DNA of 62,105 nucleotides, counting the filler, from Basidiobolus ranarum (Eukaryota): assembly GCA_040143965.1 (NCBI GenBank). It is 15 parts of 15 records of this genome, joined end to end, with 100 filler letters (N's around TTAATTAATTAA, not from the genome) between each part and the next. Parts side by side here need not be neighbours in the genome. Positions count along the whole stretch, not along the records: positions 12,492 to 16,545 come from JASJQH010009012.1; 14 more parts are not named here. One strand, given 5' to 3'. This document shows, piece after piece, positions 735 through 49,037 of the stretch; position 1 is the first letter of the stretch; each line of letters opens with the position of its first letter. Made by a program: the position numbers and the translations under genes. The notes under the pieces were generated by a model. The model searched no databases. It was not told the origin of the DNA and worked only from the letters and a program-made list of their open reading frames with translations.

Positions 735-3567
735 TGTTATATTGATTGGATGGAGATGGAAAGCATGGGAGGAATTATTCACTGGACAAGTAATGCGAAC
801 CTTTAAAGACATATTGAAGTGGAGAATATTGTGAAGATTTCGAGGGACGTGTTGACTCTTTTAAGTATTTGAGAATGTTAGAAATAGTCAATATCAATCT
901 AAAACTAGCATGCTTCTCTAAACCAATATGGATCCTTCGTAGCACTAAAGAAATTGTTGGCACAGTTAGTGATCCTTGAGTTACTGTTTTGGAAGGCCAG
1001 TCGTCTATGGGCCATGGTAACAATGGTGAGTAACAAGTATTGTAATTTGATTTACCAATGGCAAGGAATAAGCTTCATTTCTTAATTAATGTAGAGTTTG
1101 TAAGTGCTCCCTTTAGGCTTGATCAAGATCTGAGAATTATCAGGTTAGGGGTATCTACGATGTGATGATTCATTTCCCAATCAGCCCTGGTAAACAATGT
1201 GGGTTGGAAAGAAGGAATTAAGCTGAGACATGGTGCATTGTGCTTGGTAGAACTTCGCTGTAGAAGGCTAATGTATCAGTGCCACCTACGCCGTAGAAAT
1301 CCCTTTAAACTTAAATATTAGAATGAGCGGCATACGGAGTGTATGAATCAAATCTATTTGACAGTCTAATTACCGCAGGAGTGACCTATATTAAATAGCC
1401 TCAATGCCTATTACCGACAAACCTGATATGAAGAAAGAGATATTCGTTGGAATTCGGTCGAAGCTTCCAAACGAAATTAAAAAATTCCCCTTTAGCTTAG
1501 CAGAGAACGTTTCCATAATGATTCTATGCAAGGATGTTGGTATTACTTCTGAGGCTTGGCCTACTTGATCCAAATATTAGGGGCTTCGCTTAAAATACCA
1601 ACGCCATACTATATTGGTGCTTGGGATTTACCTATTTTGAAATATTCGCATTTCTCCCAGAAATTAGTAGACATATTTGTTTCGCCAAGATGCGAATGGG
1701 CGCAATCATGGCATTGGATGATATTAGAATGGCAAATAGGTTTGCTTTCAGGTTGAGGATTTGTGGAGGTGCAGAAGGTAGGTGATGACTCAATTGAATT
1801 ACAATTATCCGCTGAGTTACCAAAATACTGACTTGCTTGGAGGCGATTATCACTTGGTTCAAGAACACCTTCCTGATCAGAAATCTGAAATGGATACAAC
1901 CTTATATGAAACCGTTTTGAAACCTAAATGTGGTACAGCAGACACAATGACTCTTCCACAAAGATTGTTTTTTAACGTCAAATTAGTGTTGCGCTTAAGG
2001 GTTAGACCCCCACTCTTATTTTGAGAATTTCACAGATTCGTTCGTGTTACTGGACAAATGGGTTGCTTGTGATTTGAAACTAGTACTTGAAAAAATAAAG
2101 TTTCGCTAGTAACTACGTCATTAGGTAGGCGAATTTTTTTCCAAAAGTCAAGGTATTCAAGGATAGCTTGCGAACGATGACTTGTTCCGGAATGCGGTGA
2201 ATTGGGTAATTTCTTCCTACCACAAGGGAGGTAGTAATGCCACTGATACACCAGGTGACAAGCTGGAATTTTTCATTGGAAACTGTGTGCAACCTGTGAA
2301 GTGATACTTGCCGCCGTGTTGTCACATCAATCTAAAAATAATATTCCATGTTTGAGGAGTATCCTCCATATGGATATCGCATCAAAAAAATCATCGCTCT
2401 CTTCCCGCCAATGGTGGATAATAGAATGCGTGGGAGGAGAGGTCATGGATATAATCAATCAGACTCGACTCAATTATAATGCGTTCTTTAGATACTGAAG
2501 TACATACACTAAGCTAGTTCAATCCTGTTCAAAGGAACTAATGCAACATGTTCAAACTAGTGAACGGTTAACGTGAAGCTAATGTACAGCCTGCTCACTA
2601 GTTTAATTGGAAATCAAGCATTCTCTAGCAACACAGTTGTTTACTTTATGATGAGATGTGATGTAATACGAGCATACGATACCAAAATATTAAATTTAAG
2701 GTTACACTAAGTCCTAAATGTTCATGCTATTTGTTATTGTTGAGTATTTCGGAAACATTCTGATATACACTCTCTCATTTTATCCCAATCCCTAGAAGAA
2801 TGCAACGCTTTACAGATGAACAAAGATAACAATCTTGCACTACATTGATACATATTCTTTGATGAAGCTTCATATTTTGAGTCTGCTGCTACACAAGAAA
2901 GTGGTTAAAATTTGAAAGCACAAATATATATTTAAGCTGGAGATGGGGATAAACAACATCAACCATGGCATATTTACGATCCCAAGACAGTTAGCGAGGT
3001 TGGTGGATTTTGCTTAAAGTACATGAAGTAGTTCGATTTTAGAAATATTCAATTGATAAGTATTGTCAAGTCAAATCTATAATGTATTTCAATAAAAGCA
3101 AGTAGATTCGCTATAAATTAGATAATGATACTCTTGTATTACTGGACACTTTGACTTATATATTGAATAAGGAGTAAATTTTCTGCTGTGTTGGATTCAC
3201 TCTTCAAATAGAACCTGAAAGACATATTGTATACGAACATGGATATCACAAGTCTCCACGGAAGTTGATTAACAGAAGTAGGAACAGGAATCACCATATA
3301 TATCATAACATATTCCTCACCTGAAGAATTATAGTGATTCATAGGGTCAGATCCATAATCTTGTTTGCGAGTGTGGTAAATCCTGAGTTTAGTTTTTTCC
3401 AGTATATTGCTTTTTACAAATATTGAAGACTGCACTTAGTAAAGGAGCTATATGAGCTCGGGAGATATTAGCATAAACATCTGAATTTGAGTACTTGGTT
3501 CTTGAATATCAGGAAGTACATGAGTAGAGCTCCTGCACTGTATCTGTTGATTAGTTTACATTGCTTA

Positions 3568-3908
3568 TATTGAAATCAACATAGCCTAAATATTAAGCTA
3601 TATATTACTATATGGCTTAATATTTAATTATTCCATATTTCCCAAAGATATTACTTACTATTCTCAAGTAGTATTTACTTAGAATATTCTTACCCCCAAG
3701 TTCTCAGATATATAGATTCTTCAAACTTGTCCTAGAATCCCAAACTTTGCACACATGTTTCTGGGACATTCCTTAACACATTCTACACATTTGTTTGTCT
3801 ACCTCTATACAAAACTATAAATGTCAACATTCTACTCAATAAATCAATAAGTGAAAACCACCAATTCTTTTAGTTCTTCAAACCACTTCCAACAAACTCC
3901 CAAGATAC
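3568..3908 (+). mobile_element. Copia family A LTR (degenerate, last few bases missing)
   Basis: Aligns by eye along its length to the complete LTR at 21325-21672 (e.g. aagttctcagatatatagattct, aaaactataaatgtcaac, gtgaaaaccaccaattc). Confidence 0.85.
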
Positions 3909-3957
3909 TGTTGAAGTATTTTCAGAATTGTTGCATGATGTAGGATCTGGCAATAAT

Positions 3958-4064
3958 TATTGGGAAAATATGGGCTGTTTGGAGGAACTTTAGAAAAGTG
4001 GAGTTGTGAATAGCTTTGTGAGATAATTATTTATTGTCCAGAAATAAAGCATTTATACTTTTTG
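3958..4064 (-). mobile_element. LTR-like repeat family C fragment
   Basis: Near-identical reverse complement of 33368-33473 (tataaatgc...aataaa...cagcccatattttcccaata). Confidence 0.65.
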
Positions 4065-4068
4065 GTGG

Positions 4069-4168
4069 NNNNNNNNNNNNNNNNNNNNNNNNNNNNNNNN
4101 NNNNNNNNNNNNTTAATTAATTAANNNNNNNNNNNNNNNNNNNNNNNNNNNNNNNNNNNNNNNNNNNN
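4069..4168. other. Artificial contig spacer (44N-TTAATTAATTAA-44N). Identical spacers at 8234-8333, 12392-12491, 16546-16645, 20698-20797, 24849-24948, 28994-29093, 33138-33237, 37281-37380, 41423-41522, 45563-45662, 49702-49801, 53839-53938, 57974-58073
   Basis: Identical 100-nt N-flanked linker with stops in all frames; contig lengths decrease monotonically. Confidence 0.99.
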
Positions 4169-4289
4169 TTATATAGATATAGAGATATTCCTATTTAGAA
4201 TATAGGGGCTATAGATATGTTGCTTTCTGTTTCTGATATATGTTTCATAACTAAAGTTAACTATGATGTTGAATAAAGAATCATCATCC

Positions 4290-4472
4290 AACAGTTTTGC
4301 ATTGTTTTCCTCTCCTACAACAGTGTCCCAAAGCCCTTTTTCTTGCAGCAGCATTTTCATTTTAATTTTCCAAAGTTGAAAATTGGTTCCATCCAATTTT
4401 TCAGAAGAGGGAAAAGTTCCATAAATTTGAGAAGTAGACATTACAAAGAGTGCAAGCTCAGGGCTCATAACC
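4290..4472 (-). mobile_element. Copia family A PBS (GGTTATGAGCCCTG, 4459-4472) and gag N-terminus
   Basis: MSPELALF...EKLDGTNFQLWKIKMKMLLQEKGLWDTVVGEE is a typical Copia gag start, directly after the LTR end. Confidence 0.9.
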
Positions 4473-4821
4473 TGTTAAAGTACTTGGGAGCCTGTTGGAA
4501 GTGGTTTGGAGAACTAGAGGAATTGGTGGTTTTCACTTATTGATTTATTGACTAGAAAGTTGACATTTATAGATTTGTCAAGATGTAAACAAACTAACAT
4601 GTAGAATGTGTTAAGGAAAGTCCCAGGAGCATGTGAGCAAAGTTTGGGGCTTCTAGCACAAGTGTGAAAAATCTATATATCTGAGAACTTGTAAGTTGGT
4701 AAAAAATATTCTAAGTAAATATCAAATGAGAATAATTGATAATATCTTAGGGAGTTATAAGATAACCAAGTACTAAGTTATATATGACTATATAGGTGCT
4801 TAGGCAATGCTAATTTCAACA
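4473..4821 (-). mobile_element. Copia family A 5' LTR (349 bp, TGTTGAAATT...TTTAACA)
   Basis: TG...CA termini, matches 21325-21672, followed by PBS and gag. Confidence 0.9.
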
Positions 4822-6853
4822 AGAATGACCAGTAAATATTTAGGTGTTTAAGATGAATATTTAGTAGTACACATATTAGCACAATGTTTTCCCATTTCAT
4901 TTTACATGAACCATCACCAATCTCAATTTCATAATATATGCATATCAATGCTACTAGAATATGGCCCAGAGAGAGTGCATTTGTGATAGATGGCTATATG
5001 TTAAGAAAATACGTACTCTTATATGTCTAGTGTATCTATAACTAGAGGTGACTACTTTAAGCAGGGGTCAGTAGTTATGCAGATAGGATGAAGATGGCAG
5101 AGTGCAAGATAGGACAAATAGAAATCAGCTAGGAATGAAGTACACCACAATCTATGATATTGAGTGTGTGGGTGATGATACTGATCGTGTGGGTGGATCG
5201 CATAAAGCATGTGTGAATAATGAGGTTGCGAATTATAATAGAAGAAAATTCATGTGGAAGATTAAAAAGTGAAGACAGTACTTTCATATTTGTATTCATA
5301 TTGCATAATAACCATGATTTTACTCATATTTAAGAGAAAGCTGGATAAATTAAGCTTGAAGCAACACTTTAGCACCAATATTGGTGTATTCTTTTACTAG
5401 AGACTAGTTTGCCACTGAAGAAAATATGTTGGAGTAAAAAGTCAGTGATTTCTATAGATAAAAGAAGTATGAAGTGTCCCCTACAAAAGAATTTCAGTTT
5501 GTCAACCCCTGATACACTCAAATGTACTCAAACTTGATTACACTCTGGCTAGCAAAACCGCAAGAGAAATTAACCATATTACACGAAGAAATATTCATAT
5601 TCAATATGTATGGCGTATGTAGAGTGATCAAGATGAAACAGTTGTCATTTTAGGAAATATATCAACTTTCGAACATGATTTTAAATACTGGAGTAGCTCT
5701 AAATCTACTGTAAATCTACTGATTGCTAATTAGTACTACAGTGCACGATCCTATAAAATCGAATATAATACAAGTGCCAGATATACAAATGAGATAACTG
5801 CAGGTAGTGCTTAGGAATCCTTTCAGCATTTATCTACAAGAATCTCGATAATTTACTCGCGCATTATCTTTCCATACTTAATCTCAAGTATCACCGATTT
5901 CTACAGAAACATATGTAGAAGGGTAGGTCAGTGCATAAGGGGAGTGAAATCTAGGCTGTGAAAATAGACGAATCACCTCCTGTACATATCATCGGACATT
6001 AGTTACACTAGATTCAACTCACTGCAGAATGACGTAAATGGATGGAGTGAATAATTCAAAAGACCATTTTGGGCAGTAGGATAGAGGAATATATATATCA
6101 TATTGTGTAAATCAATCGCGCACTGAGAAATGTACACCAAATTTGAATCCTTGACCAGTTCAAGAAGGTTCCAGGAAAATCCTTCGAATCACCAAACTGA
6201 ATCTCGTCATAATGATTCAATTTCCGGAATGTACAAACCCTTTGGCTGAATCATGTATCTCTTTCTTCTCTTTGCTGATCAAAATCCGGCAATCTTGGTT
6301 GTACAACAATTAAAATGGGAGGCAAATGCGGATACGGATGCAAATGCGGATCTGAATGGTACATCATATATGTACTTGAATCCATTATTATAGGTGGATT
6401 TGGGATTTAAAGTAGCTCATCAGTCTGACATCTCTTTATGCCCAAATTCCTAGTCAAAGAGCTGGGTATTTGACGGGTAAGTGAGACGCGTAATCATAGC
6501 AGAATTATGGTGTCTTTGGCATCTATGCGAATCATTGAAGTATCAAACATTCACCATTTATATCAATAGTGATGGCTAATATGAGACCAGTTATACATGC
6601 ATCAATAGAAGTCTGAACTGTCGTGCCTGCACTTATATTCAGAGAGATTGCAAAAACTAAAGAGAAGGAAACTCATACAAAATGAAACCATCGATGTTTG
6701 CTAGAAGAAATAAATGGTGTAGAACTACTTATTTACAGTACATTAATGATGATTGGGGAGGGGACTTTTTCAGTGCTAACTGTTATTACAAAACAAAATT
6801 GGTACGCTGCTTTACATCTGATCGACCAGCAATGGTTGTTGTTTATCGCATCA

Positions 6854-9876: not shown

Positions 9877-10968
9877 CTATATACAAGTCTCTTCACCACA
9901 GCTATTATCAGAAGGATTAGGGTCACGATAAAATGGTGCACTATTTAAGCAACCAGCGAGATTGACCAACTTCCAGCCGCGCCCTTGAAGATATTCGATA
10001 GCACGCTGAGCAAGAGGTATGGTAGCGGGATAACTTCCAGGTCTAAAGTCAGCAGTTGTGTTCCACACATCATGATCCAAAGAGATAAATTTTCCTACTT
10101 TAGGGTCTGTAGAGCCAGTTTGACTTACATATTCTTGGAACATTTCATCGAGCTTATTCTTTGGATTCCAATCTACGGGATCTACATTCCAAGTGACCAC
10201 GGTATACCCCATACGTTTGAGAACTGACAATGAAGGCTTATCCGTATCACCATAAGGTGGTCTCATACAAGTGGGAACTTTTCCGAGAATTTTAGCCAGT
10301 GCATGATTTAACCGAGTCATTTCATAAACAATCTCTTCCTCATCGACGGTAATCAAGTCTGTATGAGCCCAAGTGTGAGAACAAATCTGATGACCGGAGT
10401 TATAAGCTCTTTGGACAACATCTGATAGCTGATAAATGCTAAGTATTGGGTTCTTGGTATCAGCATTCTTTTGGTTCAAACCGTTGACAAAGAATGTCAC
10501 TTTCACTTGCTTTTTGTCCAAGTAATCCAATAATCCCGAAGTAAGAACACTTGGTCCATCATCAAAGGTCACCGCGAATGTTCCTGGTACGGAACAACCA
10601 GTTACAACTGTGGCTTGAGTTTTATCATCACAACCACCAAAACTTTTCTGACAACCGGTACCACAATGATCTGAGGTATAACCACAAAAGCCCCATTTAC
10701 TACAGCATAATCCTGATCCACAAGTACCAATTTTGGCCCCACAAGCTTCGTCTAAATATTTGAAAGTGGTAACGATAGGACTGGTGGAAGGTTTGGATGA
10801 TTTGGAGGTACTGGAAGCTACCTTAGTGGACACAGTGCTGAGATGGACGGTTTTAGTGGAAATGATTGACCTTGAAGTAGTTAACGTCTGAGTACCACTG
10901 TACTGAGGTGCCCCACTAACAGATGAAGCAGTTAGTCCAAGGAGTAGTAAATGAATCACTGAATTCAT
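9877..10968 (-). CDS. Secreted chitin/polysaccharide deacetylase (CE4) with S/T-rich linker and CBM18 chitin-binding domain
   Basis: Intronless 363-aa ORF: signal peptide, CCSKWGFCG hevein motif, NodB motifs TFDDGP, HTWAH, RPPYG, DPVDW, LDHD. Confidence 0.95.
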   Translation of the reverse strand: MNSVIHLLLLGLTASSVSGAPQYSGTQTLTTSRSIISTKTVHLSTVSTKVASSTSKSSKPSTSPIVTTFKYLDEACGAKIGTCGSGLCCSKWGFCGYTSDHCGTGCQKSFGGCDDKTQATVVTGCSVPGTFAVTFDDGPSVLTSGLLDYLDKKQVKVTFFVNGLNQKNADTKNPILSIYQLSDVVQRAYNSGHQICSHTWAHTDLITVDEEEIVYEMTRLNHALAKILGKVPTCMRPPYGDTDKPSLSVLKRMGYTVVTWNVDPVDWNPKNKLDEMFQEYVSQTGSTDPKVGKFISLDHDVWNTTADFRPGSYPATIPLAQRAIEYLQGRGWKLVNLAGCLNSAPFYRDPNPSDNSCGEETCI

Positions 10969-12491
10969 GATGAACTTGGAAATATAAAAGAAACGTATGG
11001 TTAGTTTAACGGAGAGACTCGATTTATATAGAGAAGGAGAGGGATGGATTTACTTTAAGCGACCTGTATTGAGCTTTATCCTATGACTAAGTTACAAATT
11101 ATTATGCAACAAGGCAAAGCAATACTTGTATACACTTTTCACCATTGACATCTACTCAATATCTATTGGGGAAGGGAAGAATTTTGATTAGTGTGACAGT
11201 GATACTGCATGCAAATACCGCCAAATGTAAAAGCGACCATTTCAGCTCGTTACATTGTAGCTTATACAAGATAACACCACATCTCAAATAGTGTTCAACA
11301 TCGTAAGCATCAAAGCATTTCTACCATAAATGGCCGGATTGGTAAAGAAATATCACTGGCTAGTCTATAAATATAAAAGTCAACATCAATTATCCCTTTC
11401 CAAATATAGTAGCATGAACTTCGATAGGTTCCTTTGGTTAGCTATCATTTTCCTATTCAGTTGACTAAGTTAGGGAACAATCGTCTAGACAATGAAACTG
11501 GTTCGGGTGGGACGATTTAGTAAAGATTTCTTGCCATGAGGAGCATTGGGTTGATAAGGTCTGGCGAGGATATTTCCATAAACAAATAGGGAGTGAAATT
11601 GGCTATGCAATATCATCGGGATTGTATTGTAACTCAACGTGTGCAATGGAACTAGTATAACTTGCTTAGCTAAATTTAGTTAATAGCTATTCTTATATGC
11701 TAGTTAACCAAACAAATACTGTAGTAGAACGTTACCGTCTATTTTTATTGGTAATTCTCGAAAGACTTACTGGAATGAGTTCGCACGCTATGCATATAAT
11801 GTTCATAGTGTGTTGCATTGCTATGATGGTTCGAATCTCGGCAGAGATGGAATTTCGCATTTTGGCCTTGGTGGAATTATCTCATAAGAATTGTGGTTTT
11901 ATGAGCATATATACTGTTAGGAAATAAATCAACATTTGCCGGTGCTTTTTATGCAATACTCTAGTTCTAGGTAGATAAAAGGACCATAGTATGACCACTG
12001 TTAAAATGAGATGTCTTTGATTGGACACTTCTACTGAATTAGAGTAACATAGATAACATATTTTATTTTCTGATCATACTCCTCTACTTTAACCATTCCA
12101 TTTGTCTTTTGTAGTTGCATTCAATTGGAAACAAAGTGCTCCTACCTGGTCTATTTTCAATATATTTTATATACATTTGGCAGTAATTTGAAGAGATATG
12201 TTATTTTTTTTTGCTCAAGTGAATGATAACAAGAATTTATTCATCTATTGGAATAAAGAAAATCAATAACAGTGATATAGTGTTAGGGTATAAGGATGTC
12301 AGAGAAAAGCTGAAATCTTGACTTCAATATTCGTTAAATATGGATTAATTATATTAAACATGATGTGTGAATATTTAAGTATAATATTCAGNNNNNNNNN
12401 NNNNNNNNNNNNNNNNNNNNNNNNNNNNNNNNNNNTTAATTAATTAANNNNNNNNNNNNNNNNNNNNNNNNNNNNNNNNNNNNNNNNNNNN

Positions 12492-12683
12492 AAATAGAGA
12501 AATTGGTGGTTTTCACTTTTTCATTTTTTGAGTTGAAAGTTGACATTTATAGTTTTGTCAAGATGTAAGAGAGCTGATGTTTAGAATGTGCTTAGGAAGG
12601 TCCCAGAAACATGTGTGCTAAGTTTGGAGCTTCTAGCACAAGCTTGAAAAATCTGTATATCTGAGAACTTCTAAGTAAATTCC
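12492..12683 (-). mobile_element. Copia family A LTR fragment
   Basis: Matches 4515-4720 (gaaattggtggttttcactt...ctgagaactt); truncated against the Fanzor remnant. Confidence 0.85.
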
Positions 12684-12689
12684 CAAAAC

Positions 12690-13343
12690 AAGTCTGCTTT
12701 TTGATACACAAGAAGCCAGCAAGCAATATAACCACAAGCAAGATATTTGTGGAAGCTTTGAAGATCTACATTCTGAACAAGAATTAATTACCAGTTTGAA
12801 GAAGAAATTTGGGGACGATGTTGATGTTGTATTAGGTGACTGGTCATATGCGAGTGTGAAATTTGCTGAGCCAATTAGAGGGAAAGGAATGCAACATATA
12901 CTATGAAAAGCAAAGTTCTGTTGTTGAATGAGTTCAACACTTGAGGTTTTTGCCCCAAACGTGAACTCTCAGAATTGGAAAAATTCAAAACTATTCCAAA
13001 CCCAAGAGTTTTTAGAAGAAACAAGATGGCGACTGTAGAATGTCATGATCCTTTAAGGTGCTGTCCAAAATACAAAAAGAGAGAGATAAAAATGAAAGCT
13101 AATATATTTTCATCAAATAGGTGCACAAACCGAAATTGTTTTGAGACCACGCTAGCCAGTAGCATTAGATGACTTAGGAACCGAGACCTTGCTGCAGTGC
13201 TCAATTTCCGGCATATCTTAACTTCACCTAGAGAAAAAGCTACCCGTCCTGACCGATTTAAGCCCCAAAAGCAAGGTGAAAGAAAAGGCAAGCAAAAGGA
13301 AAGCCAAGAATCAAACACTCTTCCTCCTCAGTTATCGCTGTAG
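12690..13343 (+). pseudogene. Degenerate Fanzor1 (eukaryotic TnpB-family RNA-guided nuclease), C-terminal half
   Basis: Reconstructed: SEQELITSLKKKFGDDVDVVLGDWSYASVKFAEPIRGKGMQHIL*KA / frameshift / KVLLLNEFNT*GFCPKR..LEKFKTIPNPRVFRRNKMATVECHDPLR^CTNRNC...R*LRNRDLAAVLNFRHIL...RPDRF + basic tail, stop at 13341-13343. The GDWS, (D)E, CxxC..CxxxxC and NRD motif order is that of fungal Fanzor1. Confidence 0.85.
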
Positions 13344-13439
13344 GACACCCATAGTATAGATAAGATTTTCTATTGATCGTTTAGAAATCATCCCGGTTAT
13401 GTCCACAAAAAACTGAGACGTCTAGTTTTACTGGGACGG
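13344..13439 (+). ncRNA. Candidate Fanzor omegaRNA scaffold / element right end
   Basis: Directly after the Fanzor stop: hairpin 13364-13389, and stem 13391-13397/13430-13436 enclosing hairpin 13409-13429. Function is inferred from position. Confidence 0.45.
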
Positions 13440-16400
13440 CCAAAGTAGAATGAGAAAGCTTGTTTGAGTACAGGAAACCATCTTCTAATAAATACAGCAC
13501 TATGTGGCTCAATAAATGAGAACAAGCCTCTTTTATAACATATACTATTTAACATGACAACTCTTAGTCTCTCTCATTCAAATTGGTAATTGGGTCATTG
13601 CATATTGTATCTCCCCAAGAAACAAAGTTGTGTATTTAAACATTTGCAAGTTGGTGTTGATTCTTCGAGCAACCACGAGGTATATGTCTGGATAAAAGGC
13701 ATATAAAGAGTAAGAGTGGAGTTTACACTCAACACTTCAATATGTAGCAATAGTTTAAAAGTTTAACATATCTTCATATTGACACTACTTCATGGACTCA
13801 TTTATAACTCATAACTCTCTTCATGTTCAAGATCCATAAAGATGCGACTTTGGGAGTACTTTTATTTCCATATCTCTTGCACAAATCTCGCAAAAATTCA
13901 TTGAAGTATCGTGACTATATATTCCCTAAAGATTTACAGCATTGAACACTGAGCACTTTCATTACGAACTTATATTTAGAAACTAATTGTCACTTATAGG
14001 AGATAGCAAATATGTCGCTGAAGCCGTACACAACTGTCGGCTATCAAAAGTAAAGTATATTCCGTCTTTCAAATATCTGCACGTCTATCTTTCTTCCTTC
14101 TCTGAGAGTTAATAGCCGAAGGGAGGGGGTAGCTTCACATTTATGTGAACTCTTTCGAATCAGTCAAGTTCTACTATCTGAGCAGCATTATATTCAAACT
14201 AGGCACATAAAGATCATAGATCAGATCTTGCAAGGCCATCAAGTAGAGATAATAGTAATTGAAACATCGAGCTGTGTGAGTTTGACGAGAGCTTCAATTA
14301 CTATTATGACAATATTCCTAATATGTTGTACCTAAGCTACAGCTCGGCTCTGACTAATTCCTCGGCCTACTATCCAGCTGCTCCTGATTACCACTACACT
14401 ACTACAGCATTGGAAATAAAGGACTATACCAGGCATGCTCCAGGGCATTCTATATGTTTACAACGGGAATATAGTATGTGTTTCGCTAAAAGTGCTCTGT
14501 CATCAGTGCTGCCAGACTATCCATAATTGAAATTAACCGGGTGATGTTATCATAAACTGCTAGATTACCCATCAAGACTTATCTACTACTAAGTGAAAGT
14601 ATATTTAGCCCAGTAATAAAAATAACTCGAAGTGGGTAACGAGTAGACTATTCTTACTTGCCAGTTGAGAGCCAATCACCAATTTGCTTTTGTTAGATTT
14701 AGTGTCATACCTTCGTGTGGACCATAACGGTTGTCATAGCAAATTGTGGAATCTTTGTAACATCCAATGTTTTCTCCGTCGACTCGGAAATGGATTCTTT
14801 ACGGTTATGCAAGTGCATAGAGTAACTCAACATATGATTCATACATAGTCTCGGTTACCTTGCACGCACCGTTCAATCCCGAGTGAAACTAATCTCAAGG
14901 TTAGTACGAAAAAACTTGACTGTGGAGCACAATGGATGTCTATGCTAGAAGCATACTCAGGAAGTACTCTGAAGCCAATGAGGTAGATGTGAAAGTATTA
15001 AAACTAATTAGACTGTTGGTTGTATCACTGCCTCTTCGACGGGGATTTGATTACTTCAACAGTGCGATCTGCATGTACATGCTAGAGACTATATATATTT
15101 AAGCTAGACATATCTTACGTCAAGTAGACAAAATTGCTTATCAAACCTGCCGATTGCTCGTAGGGATGGTGCGATTATTCTTATGCGTGGCTTGATACAG
15201 TCTGCATTTTCCAGCAGAGTTGTTGAACATAACCCACCAAGTCTGGTGATTTCGAGCAGTGACATCAGGGTCATTCATATAGTTGTGACCTCAGGTGATG
15301 CACAGCCATCAACACGTATAACACAATCCAGATCAAGGTCGAATAGCGATGATTTTCGTCATGCTAATAAGATGATTTAATTCATGGAATTCATTTACTG
15401 GCCCCCTGCACGAAACCAATGCCTGCTAAGTCACACGTTGACATTCCTGTGTTCCCAAGTCCAAGCCAGTTGCTAGATGTTGATCGTTGCAGCGTTGTAA
15501 TTCTTTGCATGTACCATTGGGTAGCTATCCAGTCCTGTAATCCAAATGGAAATTAACTATGCGTGATGGATATCCATGGCCTTTTATCGATCACCTGCTG
15601 ATCATTTTTGGCACCAAGCCTAATGCGAGTTACCTATCTTGATTTCTGGTAAAGTACCGAGGGGTTTTCACCGATCCGAAGGATACCAACACTCTTGAAC
15701 AGATATTGTGGAACTAATCTGCAGTATAAACTCGAGGGTTATCTTCAAACCGGGATCTATTTCCTAAAACCCACTTGAACTCGATTTCTATGATCTATTT
15801 TTACGTAATGTAGGTCGAGTGGCAAAAATTGGAATTCCTTGGGGGAGATAATTGCTCAGTTGTTTTGACTTCTGCTCAACTGCACATACCCCAAGCAATT
15901 CCATCATACTGTTTGTAGCCAAGTGTCTAGGCCAATCTGTTATCCGTCTGGTAGGGTAATTTCTCTGATACACAGAGTGGTGATGAAGGGTTAAGTAGTT
16001 CAAACCTGTAAATAATGATACAAAGTGACCTGTGTCCGTACTACATGACTTATTCAGTTCGCTTAAGTAAATTCAAGATGTTTCCTAACTTAAATATAAT
16101 ATGATTACCTAACGATTTCATATTGATTGGGTTCTATTTATGTTTCGAAATCCCAACAGTGCTGCAATTAGCAACTTTATCATTGAAATCTTACCTATGT
16201 GTTCAACAGATAAGCCACAGGAGACAGATAAACAACTCGAACATATAGCAACAGTACCCATTTGCTCCAACAAAGCACTAACCGTTCTACGTTCACACGG
16301 TGAAATGGCATAGTCTAAGAATTCCTGTGGAATAACGCTGATTGATATAGCGTCTCTAAGCATGGGTAGGAAGCCAGGTTCTGTATATTGAACAATTGAA

Positions 16401-16645
16401 TGTTTCTAACGTTCTAGACATATCGGATTATTTTAATGGTCGTGGGAATATAGATACATGGTGCATGTGTGATTCATGTGTGACCCATACAAAGCTGTAA
16501 CAGAGGCTAAACACCAAGACCATCCTCATTCATAACTGGAGTGTANNNNNNNNNNNNNNNNNNNNNNNNNNNNNNNNNNNNNNNNNNNNTTAATTAATTA
16601 ANNNNNNNNNNNNNNNNNNNNNNNNNNNNNNNNNNNNNNNNNNNN

Positions 16646-21324: not shown

Positions 21325-21672
21325 TGTTGAAGTTAGCATTGCCTAAACATCTATATAGTCATATATAGCTTAGTACTTAGTTATCTTGAAATTCACTAAG
21401 ATATTATCCATTATTCTCATGAGGAATTTACTTGGAATATTCTTACCAACTTAGAAGTTCTCAGATATATAGATTCTTGCAAACTTGTGCTAGAAGCCCC
21501 AAACTTTGCACACATCTTCCTGGGACTTTCCTTAACATATTCTACATGTTAATTTGTTTACATCTTGAGAAAACTATAAATGTCAACTTTTACTCAATAA
21601 ATCAACAAGTGAAAACCACCAATTCCTGTAATTCTCCAAACCACTTCCAACAGGCTCCCAAATACTTTAACA
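21325..21672 (+). mobile_element. Copia family A 3' LTR (348 bp)
   Basis: TGTTGAAG...CTTTAACA directly after the PPT; at least 8 full or partial copies in the window. Confidence 0.92.
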
Positions 21673-21714
21673 GATACTAGCCTTTGATAGAAGGTTAGAT
21701 TGAGAATGTGATAA

Positions 21715-29093: not shown

Positions 29094-29654
29094 TTTGAGT
29101 ATTGATCCCAGTAGCTAATTTGGTATTATTCTGATCTGTGATAGTGCATCCAGCCTTACTGAGCATAAAATTTAGTCCTTGAGTTGTTGCTTGGCTTACT
29201 GAGAGTAGATTCTTGACTATAATTGGTACGTAGAGTACATCATTCCATTTTGCAGATTGTGTAGCTGAATTTCAGTCTAAATTGAGTAAAACTGTGGCTT
29301 TACCAACTGCATCTAGTGCATAGTCTTCCCCTAAGTAGACTTTCCTTGTTTGGATTGGTTTCAATCTAGGGTTTTATTGAATTGAATATGTCCTATTTAT
29401 GGTTTACTATGAAATAGGACTATTGGACATGCTTGGATCATAACAAACATGCCTGTTAAGCACGGGTAAATATTTGGAATGATTTGGAGAAGTTTTGAGA
29501 AAGTAGTGAAAATTGGTAAAAGTGATCTAATTGATATTTCTATCATTTAGAGCAATAAACACATGTTTTTGAATGGCAGAATTAAGTGCCAAATAATCAG
29601 AATATGAATAAACTAAACACTAAAAAATGAGTTGTTCTTAATCTAATTTCAACA
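29094..29654 (-). mobile_element. Copia family B protease-region fragment plus LTR (about 29350-29654)
   Basis: Reverse complement matches 40400-40650 and LTR 56079-56430. Confidence 0.8.
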
Positions 29655-29659
29655 CTCTA

Positions 29660-32529
29660 TGTACTATATCAGCCAAGAATCTGCCCTGAGTAAGCCAAGC
29701 AGCAACTCAAGGACTAAACTACATGTTCAGCAAGGCTGGATGCACTATTACAATTCAGAATAATAACAAATTATTTACAAGAATACAAACTCAAAACTTA
29801 TACAAGTCAAAAAAGAACAAATTGCATTCAGAACATGCAAACTTGGCTAAAACTGATGAAATTTGCTATCAAGTATGGCATTGAGGATTAGGCAACATTG
29901 AGGAACAAAAGCTGACCTAAATGATCTAAAATCAGCTTGTTGAAGGCTTTGAAATTGAAAATATCACTAAATTGGATCTTTGTGAAGGTTGAATATATGG
30001 AAATCATCACAGAAGCAATTTTCACACTCTGGAGAGATTGAATTCCCACACAAGCTTACCACAATTTATTCTGGCCTTCATGCGCAAATGAAAAACATCT
30101 CACTAGGTGGGAAAAGGTACAGTATGACCTTTATTGATGACAAAACAAGATGTACCTGGGTATTCTTTCTCAAATCTAAATCTGAAGCCTTAACTCCATT
30201 CATGACATACAGAGCAATGGTAGAGAAAGAATCAGCACAAAGAATAAGGGTATCATGGAGTGATAATTGTGGAAAGTTCTGCTCTAAAGACTTTATTAGT
30301 TTCTGACTTAAACATGTAATTAAGCAACAAACTACTTAACCTTATACTCCACATCAAAATGGAGTGCAGAATATGCCAATAGGACCATGGTGGACATGGC
30401 TAGATCAATGTTGAATGATTAAAACTTGGATTACCAATATTGAGCTGAATCTGTCTCCACTGCAGGCTTTATCAAAGCAGATGCCTAACAAGATTGCTAC
30501 AAAATTCTACTCCATTTGAAGCCCTATATGGATCAAAACTAAGTATTTATCATCTCAGGATCATTGATTAAGCAACTTATTGCCTAATTTCAGTTCAATA
30601 TACTCTAAATTGGAGCCCAAAAGCAAAAAATGCATCTTTTTTGGTTACTGTGATGGATCAAAGGCCTACAGACTGTTTGATAACAAAAAACAGAAGTTAA
30701 TCAAGTACAGAGAAGTGATTTTTGATGAAGCAGCATATTTTTCACCGCAAATCACCTTTCTTGATCCAGAAAACACAATTAGCACTATGCAGGAAGTGAC
30801 TGCCCCAATTCCATTGGTGTCTGAGCTCTATAGACCCAAAATTACAGACCCAATTACCTAAGAGGATGATTTAGGGTGCAGAAGATCTTCCAGAAGGAGA
30901 AATCAGCCAGGGAAGTAGTGATACACTTCCAATGATGATGTATACACTTATGCAACTTTCTGTAACAGCCACAGACTCTAGATTATGCCCTAGAGTGTAC
31001 AGCAACAAAGTATGGGAAAAGGCAATGTCTGAAGAGTTTTCTTCACTTCAGGACAATAAAACAATGGTTTGAAGTCCGTGACCATGAGGAACAAAGGAAA
31101 TCCAGTGCAAATAGATCTAAAAAGTCAGAAACCAAGCTGATGGAACCATAGAAACGTACAAAGCAAGATTATTTGCAAAAGGTTATTCTCAGACTCTAGG
31201 TGTTATTTATGGTGTAAAATTTGCTCCAGTAGCTGATTGTAGCCCCAATAGATCAATCCTGGCACTCTCAACCATTCATAACCTTGTTATACGTCAAATG
31301 AATATCCAAACAGCCTTTGTGTATGGATAAGGTCAGGGTCAGGTAGCTAAAATTAGCACCATTAGATCAATCCTGCCACTCTCAGCCATACATGACCTTG
31401 ATTTACATCAGATGGATACAAAAGAAGCCTTTCTGCTTGGAAATCTAGAAGAAGAGATATTTATGGAGCAACCAGATGGATCTGTGGACCCAAAACACCC
31501 TGATAGGGTTGGTAAACTGCACAATTGCTACATGGACTCAAGCAAGCACCCAGGGTATGGTACAAACAGACAGATACCTATTTGGTATCACTAGGGTTAC
31601 AAAAATGCCTCACAGATCACAGTGGTTACATCAAAATAACCGGATATGCAATCCACTTCACAGCATTATATGTGGATGCTTTGAATATAGTCATCAATGA
31701 TATAGAAGCACTTAATCAGACAAAAAGCAGCTTATCAAACCAATTTCAGATGACTGTTTTAACATTAATGGAACCAAATCTGATATTAATTAAAATATTA
31801 TCCACTTTGGCCCAAAATGACTCAAATCAAAGCCAGGTGTTCCCTTAGCAATCCATGGTGGGCAGCTTATTGTAAACAATGGTTGAAAAACATCCAGACA
31901 TTGCTGTGGCAGTGGGAACTGTCAGCCAATATCTCAAAAATCCAGGATCTGAACAAAAAACAGTAGTAAACAAATATCCATGTATGTGAGAGCAACAGTA
32001 GATCTAGTTCTGGAATGCTCAGCCACTCCTGATGCACAAAATTTTGAAGGCTAGACTAATGCAGCCTGGGGAAGAAACCATGATGATAGAAGATCAACAA
32101 CTGGGTACATTTCTCTCTCTGGTAATGGATCTATAACTTGGAATAGTAAGAAGTAACCAAATGTTCCATTTTCAATTACAGAAGCAGAGTATATGCCTGC
32201 CTCTGCTACTACACAAGAAGCTATGTGGTTAAGGAAGCTATTTACAGACCTAGGATACATGCAAGATGTGCTATTACTATATTTTAAAATACTCAAAGTT
32301 ATATTTCCTTAGCTAAAAACACAACATTTCATGTTAGAACAAAACATATAGATAATAGGCTTCATTTTGTTAGAGAGGCAATAGAGAATGTTACAATTGA
32401 ACTTGTCTGTTGCCCTGCTGAAGAAATGATTGCTGACATCTTAACCAAACCTTTAGCTAAAGCACAATTTGAAACATTAAGATATAAGTTAGGGTTATGA
32501 GAAATACAAAATAATTAGTTGAGTTGAAA
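29660..32529 (+). mobile_element. Decayed Copia family B pol (protease-integrase-RT-RNase H)
   Basis: YSMTFIDDKTRCTWVFFLKSKSE, PYTPHQNG, KLEPKSKKCIFFGY, YKARLFAKG, MDTKEAFLLG, ALYVD, DRRSTTGY, ADILTKPL; heavily interrupted. Confidence 0.92.
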
Positions 32530-33137
32530 TGTTGACAGTGAGTAAATAGCAACTCATTATTTAGTAGATAGTTTACTCATCTTGTCATTTTTTAGCACTC
32601 AATTCTGCAATGCAAAAATGTGTGTTCATTACTCTAATTAATAGTAATATCACTTAGATTACTTCTAGCAATTTTCACTATTTCTCAAAACTTCTTAAGA
32701 TCACCTCAAATCTTCACCCATGCTTACCAGGCATGTTTATTATGATCTAAGCATGTCTGATAGTCCTGTATCATAGTGAAATTTAAATAGGACATATTTC
32801 ATTCATTAAAACCCAAGTGTCCAATTGACAAATCTAAATATTGTCCAAAACAGTTCCAAATCTCCTAAACACAGTTTTCCGGTTATGAGCCCCAACTAGC
32901 TTTTTAAGGAATATCTACTGGTACTTTTTACAGCATTATTGAATCCACAGAAAAGTGGATGGTGAGGACTTTCACCTTTGGAAGTTCAAGATGCAATTGG
33001 CTGGAGAAGACACAGACCTTTGGGGATTTGTTGCAGGTGAAGAAATAAAGCCCAAGGGGAGCCCAGAAACTATCCTTGCTTTTAACAAGAAGCAGAGCAA
33101 TGCATTCTCTACACTTTGGCTACATCTCAAAGACTCT
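32530..33137 (+). mobile_element. Copia family B LTR (32530-32880), PBS GGTTATGAGCCC (32881-32892) and new gag start
   Basis: The LTR follows RNase H/PPT and is followed by a PBS and DGEDFHLWKFKMQ..DLWGFVAGEE. Confidence 0.88.
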
Positions 33138-35842: not shown

Positions 35843-37280
35843 AACTCTGATGCAAAAATAGAAAGGTACAAGGCTAGACTAGTAGCCATAGGCTAATTCC
35901 AAACACCAGGAATGGATTATACAGAAACTTTTGCTCCAGCAGCAAAGTTGAATTCAACTAGATTGATTTTGAAATTTCAGCTAAATATCAGTTTAGTAAA
36001 TATCCAATGGATGTTAAAACTGCTTTTTTAAAATGTGAGTTTGCTGAGGAGATCTATATGGACCAGCCAGATGGATTTGTGGATCCAGGAAACCCTCCAA
36101 AAGTTTACAAACTCTGGAACACACTCTATGGCTTATAACAATTTCCAAGAGCTTGGAATTGCAGGTTAGATGCTTTTTTGAAAACACTCAAATTTCAAAA
36201 GAGTTATGCTTACTATAGTATCTATTTCAGGCCAGATAAGACAAACCCAGCTTTATTAGCCTTATATGTAGATGACCTTATTATAGCCACCAATGACTTG
36301 AAGACTTTTGAGAAAAATCAAATCCAGCTTATCTACCAAATTCAAAATGACTGAACTTGGTAAACTCATGTACTATCTGGAAATCCAAATTAAGATTGAT
36401 AGAACTACCAAAACATTAACTTTATACAGTTCAAGTACATCCTAGATGAATTAAACAAGTTTAAAATGGAAGAATATAATCCTGTATCTACTGTAATCAA
36501 GACAAATCTTAACTTGACCAAAAATGGCTTAAATCAGATAATTTGGATGCAAAAATGGAAGCAAGATGTTTCCTTATCAATATACAGTTGGTAGTTTAAT
36601 GTATATCATGGTTGGAAAATAGCCAAATATTGCATATTCTGTGGGTGTTATCTGTCATTATATTCAAAATTATGGATCTGATCAAATCATAGCAGTTGAA
36701 TGAATTTTCAGATATTTGAAAGGTACAGTGGATTTGTGCTTAAAATACACATATTCCAGATTAAACTTTGATCTGATGGGATATTCAGATGCAAATTGGG
36801 GATGAGATATTGAAGAGAGGAGAGCTACAATAGTATACTTATTTCTTCACTGTAATGGAGCTATTTCTTTGAACTCAAAGAAATAACCTAGTGTTGCACT
36901 TTAAACAACTGAAGTTGAATACATGGCTGCCTGTGAAGCAACAAAAGAAGCAACATGGTTAAGAGAGCTTGGAACAGGTTAAGGTTTTTCACAAAATTCC
37001 CTAACTGCAACATTTTAAGATAATCAAAGTTGTAACAATTTAGCTAAAAATCCTATGTTTCATAATAGAAGCAAACATACAGATATCAATATATTATCCA
37101 TTATTCTTGATTGGTATTAACTTAGAATTTCTTCACCAACTTCAAAGTTCTCAGATATATAAATTTTTCAAACTTATGCTAGAAGCCCTCAACTTTGCAT
37201 ACATGTTCCTGGGACCTTTTTTAACACATTCCACATGTGAGTTTGTTTTTGTCTTGACAAAACTATAAATGTCAACTTTC
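35843..37280 (+). mobile_element. Decayed Copia family A RT-RNase H and partial LTR (about 37089-37280)
   Basis: ERYKARLVA, MDVKTAFL, ALYVDDLII, GYSDANWG; closely matches 20798-21150. Confidence 0.9.
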
Positions 37281-37380: not shown

Positions 37381-38338
37381 AGCCAATATCTCAAAAATCC
37401 AGAATCTGAGCACTAAACTGCAGTAAAGCAAATATTCAGGTATTTGAGAGGAATTGTAGATCTAGTTCTGGAGCACTCTGCCAATCCTGATGCATGAAAT
37501 TTTGATGGCTTCAGTGATGCACACTGTGGAAGAAACCTTGATGATCAAAGTTCAACAACTGGGTACACTTTCTATATGGGAAATGAGCCATGACTTGGAA
37601 TAGTAAGAAGCAACCAACTCTAGCACTTTTGCTACAGAAGCAGAGTTTATGGCTGCCACTGCTACTACGCAAGAAGCTATGTGGTTAAGGAAGTTACTTA
37701 CAGACCTGGGATACATGCAAAAACATGCTATTAGTGTATTTGAAGATAAGTAAAGTTGTATTTCATTAACCAAATCCCTATAATTCATGCTAGAACAAAG
37801 CATATAGATATTAGGCATCACTCAGTTAGAGAAGAAATAGAGAATGCTACAATTGAACTCATCTAGGGCCCTAATGAAGAATTAATTGCTAACATCTTAA
37901 CCAAGCCTTTGACTAAAGCAAAATTTGAATTATGAAGATATAAGCTAGGTTTATGCAAAATATAAAATAATTAGTTGTGTTGCAATGCTGAAATTAAGTA
38001 ATTAGCAACTCCTTACTCAGTAGTTGATTTATTCATATTCATTATGATTATTAATATTCAATTCTGCCATTCAAGAGCATGTGTTTATTGCTCTAATTGA
38101 TTGAAGTATCAATCAGATCACTCTTACCAATTTTGACTATTTTCCAAACTACCTCAAATCATCTCAAATTTTTACCCATGCTTAACAGGCATGTTTGTTA
38201 TGATCTAAGCATCCTCAATAGTTTTATTTCATACAAAACTATCAATAGGACATATTCAATTTAATAGAACATAAGTCTTTAATTCACAAATCCAAATCTT
38301 GTCCAAAACACCTCCAAATGCCCTAAACACTTTTAGCA
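37381..38338 (+). mobile_element. Copia family B RNase H and 3' LTR (37986-38338)
   Basis: Homologous to 31920-32880 and 55480-56430. Confidence 0.88.
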
Positions 38339-38339
38339 A

Positions 38340-39125
38340 ATAAATGGTCTTGCATCCACTACAAGTATGAAGTAAGTTGTACACAGTTTGGCTTTGAGCT
38401 TCTTGAGCATTATCACAGTGCCAAGTAGCTGTCTGTAGATCTGGAATATCTCTGCTCCTTAGAGTTGAATAAACAGCTTATGAATCTTGCAGCATAGAGG
38501 TTATCTGCTTGATTATTTTGGCCTAAGAGAAATACTACTCCAATAGTATATATATTCTGATTCAGCTTGCCGTTGTGATTCGGTTTTCTCTCTTGATTGG
38601 GATTGAAAGGAAATACCTTAATTCATGCCTACCAGTCATGTGACAATAGTTTGATAAGTTTCTTTTTGCGCTTAGGTGCTTCTAGATCATTTGTGGTGAC
38701 AATCAAGTCATTAATATATCATATCAGATAAGGATCTTATTTCTAGTTGCTTTGATATAACTACTGTGCTCAACTGTGCATCTTTGAATTGCAGTGATTT
38801 CAAGTAGGTATCTATCTTGTTGATCAATTCCCTGGGTGCTTGCTTAAGTCCTTATAGCATCTTTTGCAGCTTACAGGCCATATCATGGTGCTTAGGGTTT
38901 ACTAATCAAATCTGGTTGTTCCATATAGATGTTTTTTTCTTGATTGCTGATTGTGCTTTCTGGACCCATTATTGTTAATGTAGCTTTTGATCATTTAACA
39001 TTGATTTTGCTATCTCTACTGTGGTGCTATTAGCACATTCTGCGATTCTGTTTTGCTGTAAACCAAAAGGTACAGTGGTTTGTTATTTGATTCCATGTTT
39101 TGACTGTTATAATCAGGTAAATAGT
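38340..39125 (-). mobile_element. Inverted Copia pol fragments (integrase/RT region)
   Basis: Reverse complement contains the EQPD, GLKQAPR and TYLKSL RT-region remnants. Confidence 0.7.
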
Positions 39126-39129
39126 GATT

Positions 39130-41522: not shown

Positions 41523-41674
41523 CTGGGATTTTTTTAACACATTCTACATTAGTCTGCTTATATCTTGATAAAACTAAATATGCCAATTTTCTACTCAATA
41601 AATCCATAAGTGAAAACCAAAAATATCTCTAATTCTCCAAACCACTTCCAACCACCTCCCATAATACTTCAACA
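41523..41674 (+). mobile_element. Copia family A LTR 3' half
   Basis: Ends ...ataatacttcaaca; matches 21520-21672. Confidence 0.85.
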
Positions 41675-43182
41675 AAGTACTATAATTTATGTACATTTAG
41701 CAAAAGCTACTCGTTATACAAAACCTAGGCATTACAATAGGTATTTACAATTTTGTTCTTAAGAATTATTTTGTGTAAAACCTAACTGCTACCTAGTGAT
41801 AGAAGGAAGAATAATTAAAATAGATTTCTCTAAGTGCTTGAATTTGTGAAAGGGTTTTAGATACAAATAAAAAATCTCAATAAATAATTATTTCTTTATA
41901 AATGAAGAAACAAATATCACAGGATACTTTGCAGGATGACATTTGGGAAATTGTGGACTTCTATGTAATTTTGTCTTTTCTATGTACTCCAGGTTAAACT
42001 AATTTCTGATTCAATTACAACATATACAAGAATGACATATAGTCTATATTTGATGTGTAAAAGATTTGGGTTCAGCACTCTAAACTATCAATAATTATGA
42101 GCAAGCACACAATTGAAGCTAGATTCAGGTTTGCTACTTTATGGCCATTGGAATCATCCCTTTTTTTGCATGTGCCAAGTGAAATAAATGGCAAATCTAA
42201 AATAAATTATTGAATGCTACCAATCTGTTCATATTTTTTGTAGTTGTCATCAGTATGCCATTCTAATATACAAGATTCAATTTCGGCTCAATTCCTAAAA
42301 AGTAATAGAATAATGTATCGTGAGTAGAAAAGTAAATATTGCAAGCTTGCTACTCGATGAATAACAATGTGAATGAAGATGTCTGTGATATGGATGCACT
42401 TAATTCATTTGATAATACAATTTCAGTTTATCCCCATCTCAAATAGTTAAAACCACGTATGTGTATAGCTACCATGTAATCAAAGAAAAAGATTTCTACT
42501 TTCTCAATTGGATTTATTCTCTTCGATATTCAAAGCAACATATGAGGAGTCTTATAGGAAAATTCTTACTCCAGGTATATGCTGCTACCAATAAGCTACA
42601 AGACGCTACTTGTGCTCACTTCGCTTTAGATTACTCACTGATATATTCTAATTTAGTCATGCAATAAGTCAACAAAATAGGAAATTCCTCCACGTAACGC
42701 TTATAATCATAATAAGAGCTACAGTTCATCGGTGGGAAAAATTGGTGTCTCATGGCGATCGTGACTCCGCTTCACATAGCTCCGATGAGATCCAGTAACA
42801 TTGAATTCATAATATGGGTGGGGATTCATCACTTATTTTATACTAGCTTTTACCCAATTGACGGATGGGTTTAATGTGCTTTACAGACACTTTTTTAGCT
42901 CACGTCCCAGGGAATTAGTTTAGTGCTCTATCGCCACATAAACAGATTAATCTATTCATATCAGGAGCATATAATAGAAGAACAGTGTCAAATTGAGTTC
43001 AAATCGGGGATTTTCATCGATGCAGAATACCAACAACCAATGTTCCAGTTACTGGACGTACGCGGACGTCTATAGGACTCAGGCAATTACCAATCAAAGC
43101 AGTATTTCTATATTATATATTAATGCTAATATCGATAACACTGCAAGTAATGCTAATATCAAGATACTGTATATAATGATCA

Positions 43183-48687: not shown

Positions 48688-49037
48688 TGTTGAAGTATTT
48701 TGGGAGTTTGTTGGAAGTGGTTTGGAGAACTAGAAGAATTGATGGTTTTCACTTGTTGATTTATTGAATTGAAAGTAGACATTTACAGTTTGTCAAGAAG
48801 TAAACAAATAAACGTGTAGAATATGTTAAGGAAGGTCCCAGGAATAAGTGTGCAAATTTGGGGCTTCTAAGACAAGTTATCAAAATCGGTATATCTTAAG
48901 AGCTTCCAAGTTGGTGTCAATATTCTAAGTAAATTCCTCCTGAGAATAGTGAGTGATATCTTATGGAAATACGGAATAACTAAATACTTAGTTATATATG
49001 ACTATATATAGATGTTTAGGCTATGTTAATTTCAACA
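48688..49037 (-). mobile_element. Copia family A solo LTR (350 bp)
   Basis: TGTTGAA termini at both ends, full-length match to 21325-21672; no clear TSD. Confidence 0.9.

Follow-up and report, generated by a model that had tools for sequence, protein, structure and literature searches.

We examined a 62,105-nucleotide (nt) stretch of the Basidiobolus ranarum genome (assembly GCA_040143965.1), here called the window, for the sequence surrounding the 3' end of a Fanzor nuclease gene and for the omegaRNA that might be encoded beside it. The gene lies on a separate piece of about 4.05 kb (12492-16545), together with a downstream segment (13344-13460) in which several short hairpins can be drawn. 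An original prediction, made from the DNA alone, had read these hairpins as the scaffold of the omegaRNA, with the scaffold ending at about 13439 and the guide starting at 13440. Of this proposal the Fanzor gene upstream of the segment is borne out, as a remnant of the PpFz1 type; an omegaRNA scaffold at its 3' end is present as a relic, placed at 13319-13371 across the stop codon and not in the hairpins at 13364-13436.

The Fanzor1 remnant

The gene features of the locus are the following.

12769-13343, + strand: 3' remnant of a PpFz1-type Fanzor1 gene, a pseudogene (tblastn, homologous proteins, match to PDB 9cf0)
12904-12906, + strand: in-frame TGA at an Arg position of relatives (judged by eye from their sequences)
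12942-12944, + strand: in-frame TGA within the conserved ...EF.TS.CP... stretch
13058-13120, + strand: intron-like insert of 63 nt, GT...AG, in phase (no PpFz1 counterpart at the ...LRC/TN.NC junction)
13170-13172, + strand: in-frame TGA at an Arg position of the closest relatives (SSIRRLWNRD)

When its TGA codon is read through, the segment 12945-13340 retrieved 57 homologous proteins at E<=1e-3, three of them at E<=1e-10, and matched the solved Parasitella parasitica PpFz1 (PDB 9cf0) directly with an E-value of 2.3e-8. Its closest relatives are three short B. ranarum gene models with 69-81% identity; full-length relatives come from sources that include Helicostylum and Coemansia, and these, used as tblastn queries, showed about 37-42% identity to the window. 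The full-length Helicostylum relative (P0060) matched PpFz1 (9cf0) at E 2e-150 and SpuFz1 at E 9.5e-44. Pfam recognised no family in the three window fragments (frames 12679-13343), the read-through giving only DUF3726 at E 0.11, and among the relatives it produced sub-threshold matches to PF07282 (Cas12f1-like TNB) in 7 of the 14 scanned. On this homology, what lies upstream of the hairpins is a genuine remnant of a PpFz1-type Fanzor1 gene. A full-text literature search for Fanzor together with Basidiobolus found no publication.

With the 525-residue relative P0007 as tblastn query, residues 346-395 aligned at 12769-12918 and residues 396-492 at 12912-13259, and nothing equivalent to the protein upstream of residue 346 was found in the window. 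The frames of the remnant may reach back to about 12679, and its TAG stop occupies 13341-13343, leaving about 180 C-terminal residues as all that remains of the Fanzor protein. The N-terminal two thirds are absent, and with them RuvC-I (the Asp in ...DPGRRD...), which leaves the RuvC triad incomplete; the codons of the RuvC-II Glu (12930-12932) and the RuvC-III Asp (13185-13187) are retained. The open reading frame (ORF) is not intact: besides lacking its 5' two thirds it carries the three in-frame TGA codons listed above and one change of frame, at about 12907-12915, where short deletions follow the TGA at 12904-12906. In the zinc ribbon (TNB), of the form CPxC...C..C, the first pair reads CPKR in the window as against CPKC in PpFz1. 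Because what is left is the C-terminal part, interrupted by three TGA codons in frame and by a frameshift and lacking one zinc-binding cysteine, this Fanzor copy is dead, and it is presumably neither expressed nor active. Two of the TGA codons (12904-12906 and 13170-13172) stand opposite Arg and would fit CGA-to-TGA transitions (C-to-T at CpG). At the 63-nt insert, query residues 40-58 are unmatched while the PpFz1 chain runs on continuously at 1206-1207; the insert is probably an intron, which would be spliced out in phase.

A conserved block across the stop codon

Four further features lie at and just beyond the end of the coding sequence.

13319-13371, + strand: relic homologous to PpFz1-type omegaRNA scaffolds (covariance model, gapless alignment, motifs of published RNAs)
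13325-13345, + strand: stem-loop 1 (SL1), UCCUCAG with CUG(U)AGGA, 7 base pairs (bp) and one bulged U (minimum free energy (MFE) fold, alignment, RNAalifold)
13355-13367, + strand: equivalent of stem-loop 2 (SL2), (U)AU[AGAUAAG]AU(U) (register of PpFz1 and of the relative L002)
13371-13390, + strand: predicted guide-equivalent (PpFz1 guide nucleotide C50 aligns with 13371)

For comparison, DNA of relatives was obtained by scanning metagenome contigs with an alignment of 13 relatives, which gave three loci (L001, L002 and L003); scans of the viral and prokaryotic genome contig collections gave no relative. L001 and L002 carry the 3' end of the gene and L003 does not, so the comparisons below use the former two, which are distant relatives of the window locus and do not represent copies of a single element. 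In the gapless alignment of the window, L001 and L002 around the stop codon, 22 of 58 columns are invariant, and all three have a T..TCC leader, AGTTAWCGCT, CCCA and TAAG. The AGTTAWCGCT motif begins at the TAG stop in L001 and L002; the window has CAG as the triplet there, and its stop comes 6 nt later. The resulting block of 53 nt begins 22 nt before the stop codon of the window, so that its first 22 nt are still coding sequence and the stop falls inside it. It thus shares the strand of the ORF and stands at its 3' end, about 25 bases upstream of the segment in which the hairpins had been drawn. Counted in bins of 10 nt, pairwise identity reaches 6-8 of 10 at 13322-13341; it stands at 4-6 of 10 both at 13342-13351 and at 13362-13371, with a dip between them at 13352-13361. 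From 13372 on, 1-5 positions in 10 agree, a level also seen far upstream. Beyond the block the likeness among the three sequences is no greater than that of shuffled ones, which score at least as high in 86/300, 221/300 and 294/300 cases.

A covariance model (R1) built from L001 and L002 only was run without filters over both strands of the whole 62-kb window. It returned a single clear match, full length, at 13319-13371 (+), with 31.3 bits and an E-value of 4.4e-5, the next best match having 13.1 bits and E 0.73; no orphan scaffold copy, separate from a Fanzor gene, was found elsewhere in the window. The MFE fold of 13319-13375 consists of exactly two hairpins (-10.4 kcal/mol, z -1.69, 11/200 shuffles as good). 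SL1 has its seven base pairs in the window, with one bulged U at 13341, and closes a hexaloop UUAUCG at 13332-13337; the TAG stop (13341-13343) falls within its 3' strand. On the alignment of the three sequences 18 of 21 SL1 cells are paired and three of the seven pairs have changed on both sides, and RNAalifold predicts the SL1 helix and nothing else. When the two published P. parasitica stems described below are added by eye, SL1 stems differ among five sequences yet remain paired. The loop of SL2 reads GAUAAG in the window, corresponding to (G)GUAAG in the relatives; in the register of PpFz1 and L002, which is the best of seven slid registers, 7 of 9 cells are paired and all three pairs have changed on both sides. 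In the MFE form the place of this register is taken by an alternative 5-bp hairpin, 13356-13360 with 13369-13373. Counted on three sequences, the covariation in SL1 and SL2 is suggestive and not proof.

The same arrangement can be recognised in RNAs already described. Two P. parasitica Fanzor1 omegaRNAs are tabulated in Table S3 of Xu 2024 (PMC11423790), and stand as IDs 58 and 59 in the supplement of Saito 2023 (PMC10432273). Compared by eye, both hold AGTTATCGCT inside a 7-bp stem, followed by AATGCAGGTAAG; they carry the AGTTATCGCT and GGTAAG motifs as the block does, and at matching spacing. The 5' end of the 71-nt P. parasitica RNA aligns, also by eye, with the first column of the block (window 13319), and its TAAG follows the SL1 loop at 26 nt, a distance that is 29 nt in the window, L001 and L002. 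According to Xu 2024 (PMC11423790), SL1 is a helix of seven base pairs in each of the three Fz1 omegaRNAs solved; for PpFz1 the paper describes only SL1 and a four-pair SL2 ahead of the guide, the part beyond SL1 being poorly constrained, with the guide starting a few nt after SL2; it names C50-C58 as a guide segment and reports a heteroduplex of 15 bp. The nucleotides U26, C50 and C58 named there fit the tabulated PpFz1 sequence, so that PpFz1 nucleotide 50 corresponds to window 13371. A longer PpFz1 SL2 stem, using the sequence after GTAAG, was considered and rejected, since C50-C58 is guide.

Several further observations concern the relatives and the published RNAs. The omegaRNAs with IDs 58 and 59 have different SL1 stems and belong to clearly different proteins, and by eye they are near-identical in the part that Xu 2024 describes as guide; this would be unexpected if guides come from unrelated insertion flanks, and a carrier element common to both or a target specific to one site may be the cause. 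The L001 Fanzor gene lies, together with the scaffold block, inside a 2,860-bp element (1721-4580) that ends TA|TAGTG... and has 135-nt terminal inverted repeats (TIRs) at 1721-1855 and 4446-4580, 89% complementary; the right TIR begins 45 nt past the scaffold end, and the L001 guide-equivalent would thus be internal to the carrier and not host flank. Runs of T occur 30, 49 and 55 nt past the scaffold block in L001 (4431-4437, T7), L002 (3221-3226, T6) and the window (13426-13429, T4), respectively, and the longer published P. parasitica RNA is also T-rich at its end; such runs may be a terminator of the RNA polymerase III type, or may be due to chance, the DNA being AT-rich. The SL1 region is read in another frame (...SSSVIAAGHP) by the closest of the B. 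ranarum gene models (P0058), whose back-translation is compatible with the same ...CAGTTATCGCTG.AGG.CACCC... nucleotides, so that, as far as the protein tells, the block seems to be kept at the level of DNA regardless of frame.

The downstream hairpins and the guide boundary

The hairpins of the original prediction occupy two intervals.

13364-13389, + strand: hairpin 1 (pairs real, at chance level; overlaps the scaffold end and the guide-equivalent)
13391-13436, + strand: hairpin 2, outer and inner stems (pairs real, at chance level; beyond the conserved block, not conserved in relatives)

As pairings, they are exactly as had been described. In hairpin 1, GATTTTCTA (13364-13372) pairs with TAGAAATC (13382-13389) at 8 of 8 positions with one bulged T. 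The outer stem of hairpin 2, TCCCGGT (13391-13397) with ACTGGGA (13430-13436), forms seven of seven pairs including one G-U, and the inner stem, AAAACT (13409-13414) with AGTTTT (13424-13429), forms six of six around the palindrome AGACGTCT (13416-13423); counting also places the end of GGGACGG at 13439. Their stability is no greater than composition would give. The whole segment 13344-13460 has an MFE of -17.8 kcal/mol, compared with -19.08 +/- 2.97 for dinucleotide shuffles (z +0.43), 128 of 200 of which fold at least as well, and 13371-13460 behaves similarly (z +0.34, 118/200). Taken alone, hairpin 1 (13362-13391) has -3.6 kcal/mol (z -0.78, 43/200 shuffles) and hairpin 2 (13389-13439) has -12.0 kcal/mol (z -0.99, 29/200). 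A scaffold at 13344-13439 would accordingly not stand out from chance in stability.

Nor do the stems reappear in the relatives. A template of the 21 flagged pairs was applied to L001 and L002 in the gapless register and then at shifts of -15 to +15. In register, 6 of 21 pairs form in L001 and 10 of 21 in L002, where about 8 are expected by chance, and the compensatory changes looked for in these stems did not appear. The best shifted placement in L001 pairs 13 of 21, a value matched by 41% of random placements. The L001 and L002 stretches equivalent to the flagged segment fold worse than shuffles (z +1.18 and +1.10). Conservation, which had been expected to run to about 13439, stops well before the hairpins, an outcome that the original prediction itself had named as counting against it; similarity to relatives is at background from about 13372, well short of the proposed scaffold end. 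Other copies of the segment had been anticipated as well, and a blastn search of 11001-14500 against the 62-kb window returned only self matches and an unrelated repeat at 12492-12676.

The analysis shows that the protein remnant is homologous to Fanzor1 and has decayed, that a nucleotide block with two helices is conserved, and that similarity is lost past about 13371. The reading that we prefer, with a probability of roughly 0.7, is that a dead PpFz1-type Fanzor1 has left its 3' end at this locus, that its scaffold survives as a relic at 13319-13371 straddling the stop, and that the flagged stems are chance pairings. The relic would present, in order, SL1, a short linker carrying CCCA, and a minimal SL2 exposing GAUAAG; in an active relative, SL1 would be where the nuclease grips this RNA with its RuvC/TNB surface, and the 15-20 nt past the scaffold would act as guide. 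By homology the junction of scaffold and guide would fall at about 13368-13371, the stretch equivalent to the guide beginning at about 13371 and not, as had been proposed, at 13440. As similarity to relatives ends near 13371, the flagged interval 13364-13436 would comprise the guide-equivalent and ordinary downstream DNA.

Several points weigh against this reading. The comparison covers two relatives with a 3' flank, both distant and both on metagenome contigs, so that the right end of this particular element is placed indirectly. The pairwise local alignment of the block is not above shuffles, 206/500 and 130/500 of which score at least as high; the independent covariance model was used for this reason, and what carries the case is the constant position at the stop codon, the structure, the match to the covariance model and the match to published RNAs. 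The E-values of that model are themselves rough, its calibration being short. In the window, SL1 needs its bulge, two of seven pairs being broken in the shared register and restored by the one-base bulge, and SL2 retains two of its three homologous pairs. The L002 template reaches 16 of 21 pairs at shift -9, five of them G-U, a value that random placements reach in 1.5% of cases; there the first template arm overlaps SL2, and we regard the value as weak and unconvincing. Finally, Xu 2024 (PMC11423790) describes the region 3' of SL1 as varying greatly among Fanzor1 systems, so that a longer, lineage-specific scaffold could exist. With the boundary drawn from distant relatives, a 3' extension of the scaffold particular to the lineage of the window copy may exist.

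The first rival proposal is that the scaffold runs to 13439, either as a multi-hairpin RNA lying wholly after the stop (13344-13439), with its right end at 13439 and a guide from 13440 (CCAAAG...), or as the core at 13319-13371 followed by extra stem-loops. The stems exist as described, longer scaffolds do occur (GtFz1 has four stem-loops according to Xu 2024, PMC11423790), the L002 placement at shift -9 lies in the 1.5% tail, and distant relatives leave room for an extension. Against this, folding is at or below the level of shuffles in the window and worse than shuffles in both relatives, sequence similarity is lost past about 13371, the L001 template fails both in register and at its best shift, hairpin 1 competes with SL2 for 13364-13373, and PpFz1, the closest characterised relative, has only SL1 and a 4-bp SL2 with the guide shortly after; we consider the proposal improbable. 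Its more specific form, in which a Basidiobolus-like lineage kept the SL1/SL2 core at 13319-13371 and gained two 3' stem-loops (13364-13436), with the right end at about 13439 and the guide from 13440, is more doubtful still; if true, the gained stem-loops would be a new, longer scaffold variant in an otherwise minimal PpFz1-type family.

The hairpin segment might instead belong to another element that carries or adjoins the Fanzor unit, such as a TIR transposon, an explanation compatible with a scaffold at 13319-13371 and one that we hold to be unlikely while keeping it in view. The 2,860-bp TIR element enclosing gene and scaffold in L001 is a precedent, and the two published P. parasitica RNAs, near-identical by eye in the parts that Xu 2024 treats as guide, suggest shared carrier sequence. 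The window past 13373 is, however, unlike the L001 TIRs: a likeness by eye of 13400-13510 to the right TIR was rejected, 86/300 shuffles scoring as high (262/300 for the left TIR in reverse complement). There is no second copy within the 62-kb window, and no convincing inverted repeat partner in 10900-15500, where, linkers apart, the best pair has 37 nt at 70%. That the block at the stop codon is a signal of the mRNA, either an element of the 3' untranslated region or a GTAAG splice donor, and no omegaRNA at all, is very improbable. GTAAG does resemble a fungal 5' splice site, and the block does stand at the end of the coding sequence; yet the same sequence is RNA recovered from P. parasitica Fanzor ribonucleoproteins (RNPs) and modelled in PpFz1 structures obtained by cryo-electron microscopy (PMC10432273 and PMC11423790), both helices show covariation, and the window copy reads ATAAG and not GTAAG.

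Surroundings and relation to known systems

The window consists of assembly pieces of about 4.1 kb chained by descending size, so features on either side of a spacer are no genomic neighbours. Fourteen linkers of the form N44-TTAATTAATTAA-N44 lie within it (4069-58073), their spacing falling from 4,165 to 4,135 bases. Two features lie upstream of the Fanzor remnant.

12392-12491, no strand: assembly linker (pairs of N-runs recurring each ~4.14-4.17 kb, with piece lengths descending)
12492-12676, no strand: truncated copy of a dispersed repeat family of about 350 bp (adjoins the Fanzor remnant; not Fanzor-derived)

The repeat copy has 78-91% identity to 4512-4696, 21449-21633, 48728-48911, 37139-37280, 3698-3866 and 53770-53838, and the other copies keep their mutual similarity past the point where it ends. 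The family, at 77-96% identity, comprises 3570-3909, 4472-4825, 12492-12676, 21325-21691, 37088-37280, 41523-41682, 48669-49041 and 53726-53838; its copies are often at piece ends, where the assembly probably broke. Repeats on the kilobase scale, 68-88% identical and common to the pieces 29094-33137, 37381-39712 and 53939-57496, are probably a larger transposable element family. The neighbouring assembly piece holds, at 9880-11049 (-), an intact-looking frame of 390 amino acids, a chitin deacetylase-like gene with chitin-binding (E 5.8e-8) and polysaccharide deacetylase (E 3.7e-32) domains, and other pieces of the window encode ordinary fungal genes (an RGS/seven-transmembrane protein, an arrestin-like protein and a catalase). 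A search of 12000-14500 against Rfam at E<=1 gave nothing relevant, its sole match being to snR76 at 13925-14000, which at 19.7 bits, below the gathering score of 55, was taken as noise.

Little hangs on the window copy itself, because it is a dead relic. Of wider use is that the hexaloop of SL1 (TTAWCG), the linker with CCCA and the loop with GTAAG remain recognisable at the stop codon across Fanzor1 genes whose proteins share only about 35-60% identity, so that a small covariance model can place the scaffold, and with it the probable beginning of the guide, in fungal Fanzor1 loci not yet characterised. The case also shows how poorly hairpins chosen by eye downstream of a nuclease gene indicate where the scaffold lies.

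Among known systems, the omegaRNA (reRNA) of IS200/IS605 TnpB elements such as ISDra2 is alike in that, in the account given by Saito 2023 (PMC10432273), its scaffold overlaps the 3' end of the nuclease gene and the guide lies beyond. It is bacterial, overlaps the ORF for much longer and folds differently, and in 12000-14500 no Rfam family was matched apart from the sub-threshold small nucleolar RNA. The SpuFz1 omegaRNA of Spizellomyces punctatus is the architecture that the original prediction had in mind. As Saito 2023 (PMC10432273) describes this system, it is a right-end RNA in which SL1 and SL2 are followed by a 14-15-nt guide derived from the flank, and S. punctatus loci have a related SL1 loop (TTGTCG or TTATCG). 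Its inverted repeat was not found in the surroundings of the window locus, L001 or L002; between the scaffold region and the sequence upstream of the ORF, L001 and L002 gave no such pair, 184/300 and 300/300 shuffles scoring as high. The protein family is also more distant, P0060 matching SpuFz1 at 9.5e-44 as against 2e-150 for PpFz1.

The closest parallel is the PpFz1 omegaRNA (structures 9cf0-9cf3). It resembles the window relic in its position at the end of the Fanzor ORF, the T..TCC leader, the 7-bp SL1 with hexaloop TTATCG, and the short SL2 whose GGTAAG-like loop stands about 26-29 nt past the SL1 loop and is followed by variable sequence. The window copy differs in its decay, seen in the bulge of SL1, in the two of three pairs kept by SL2 and in the loop GATAAG; its linker, with CCCA, exceeds that of PpFz1 by 3 nt, and its nuclease gene is a truncated pseudogene. 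The PpFz1 RNA was recovered from RNPs, whereas the relic is described from sequence and compared with that RNA by eye. The locus is an ordinary relic of a known fungal system.

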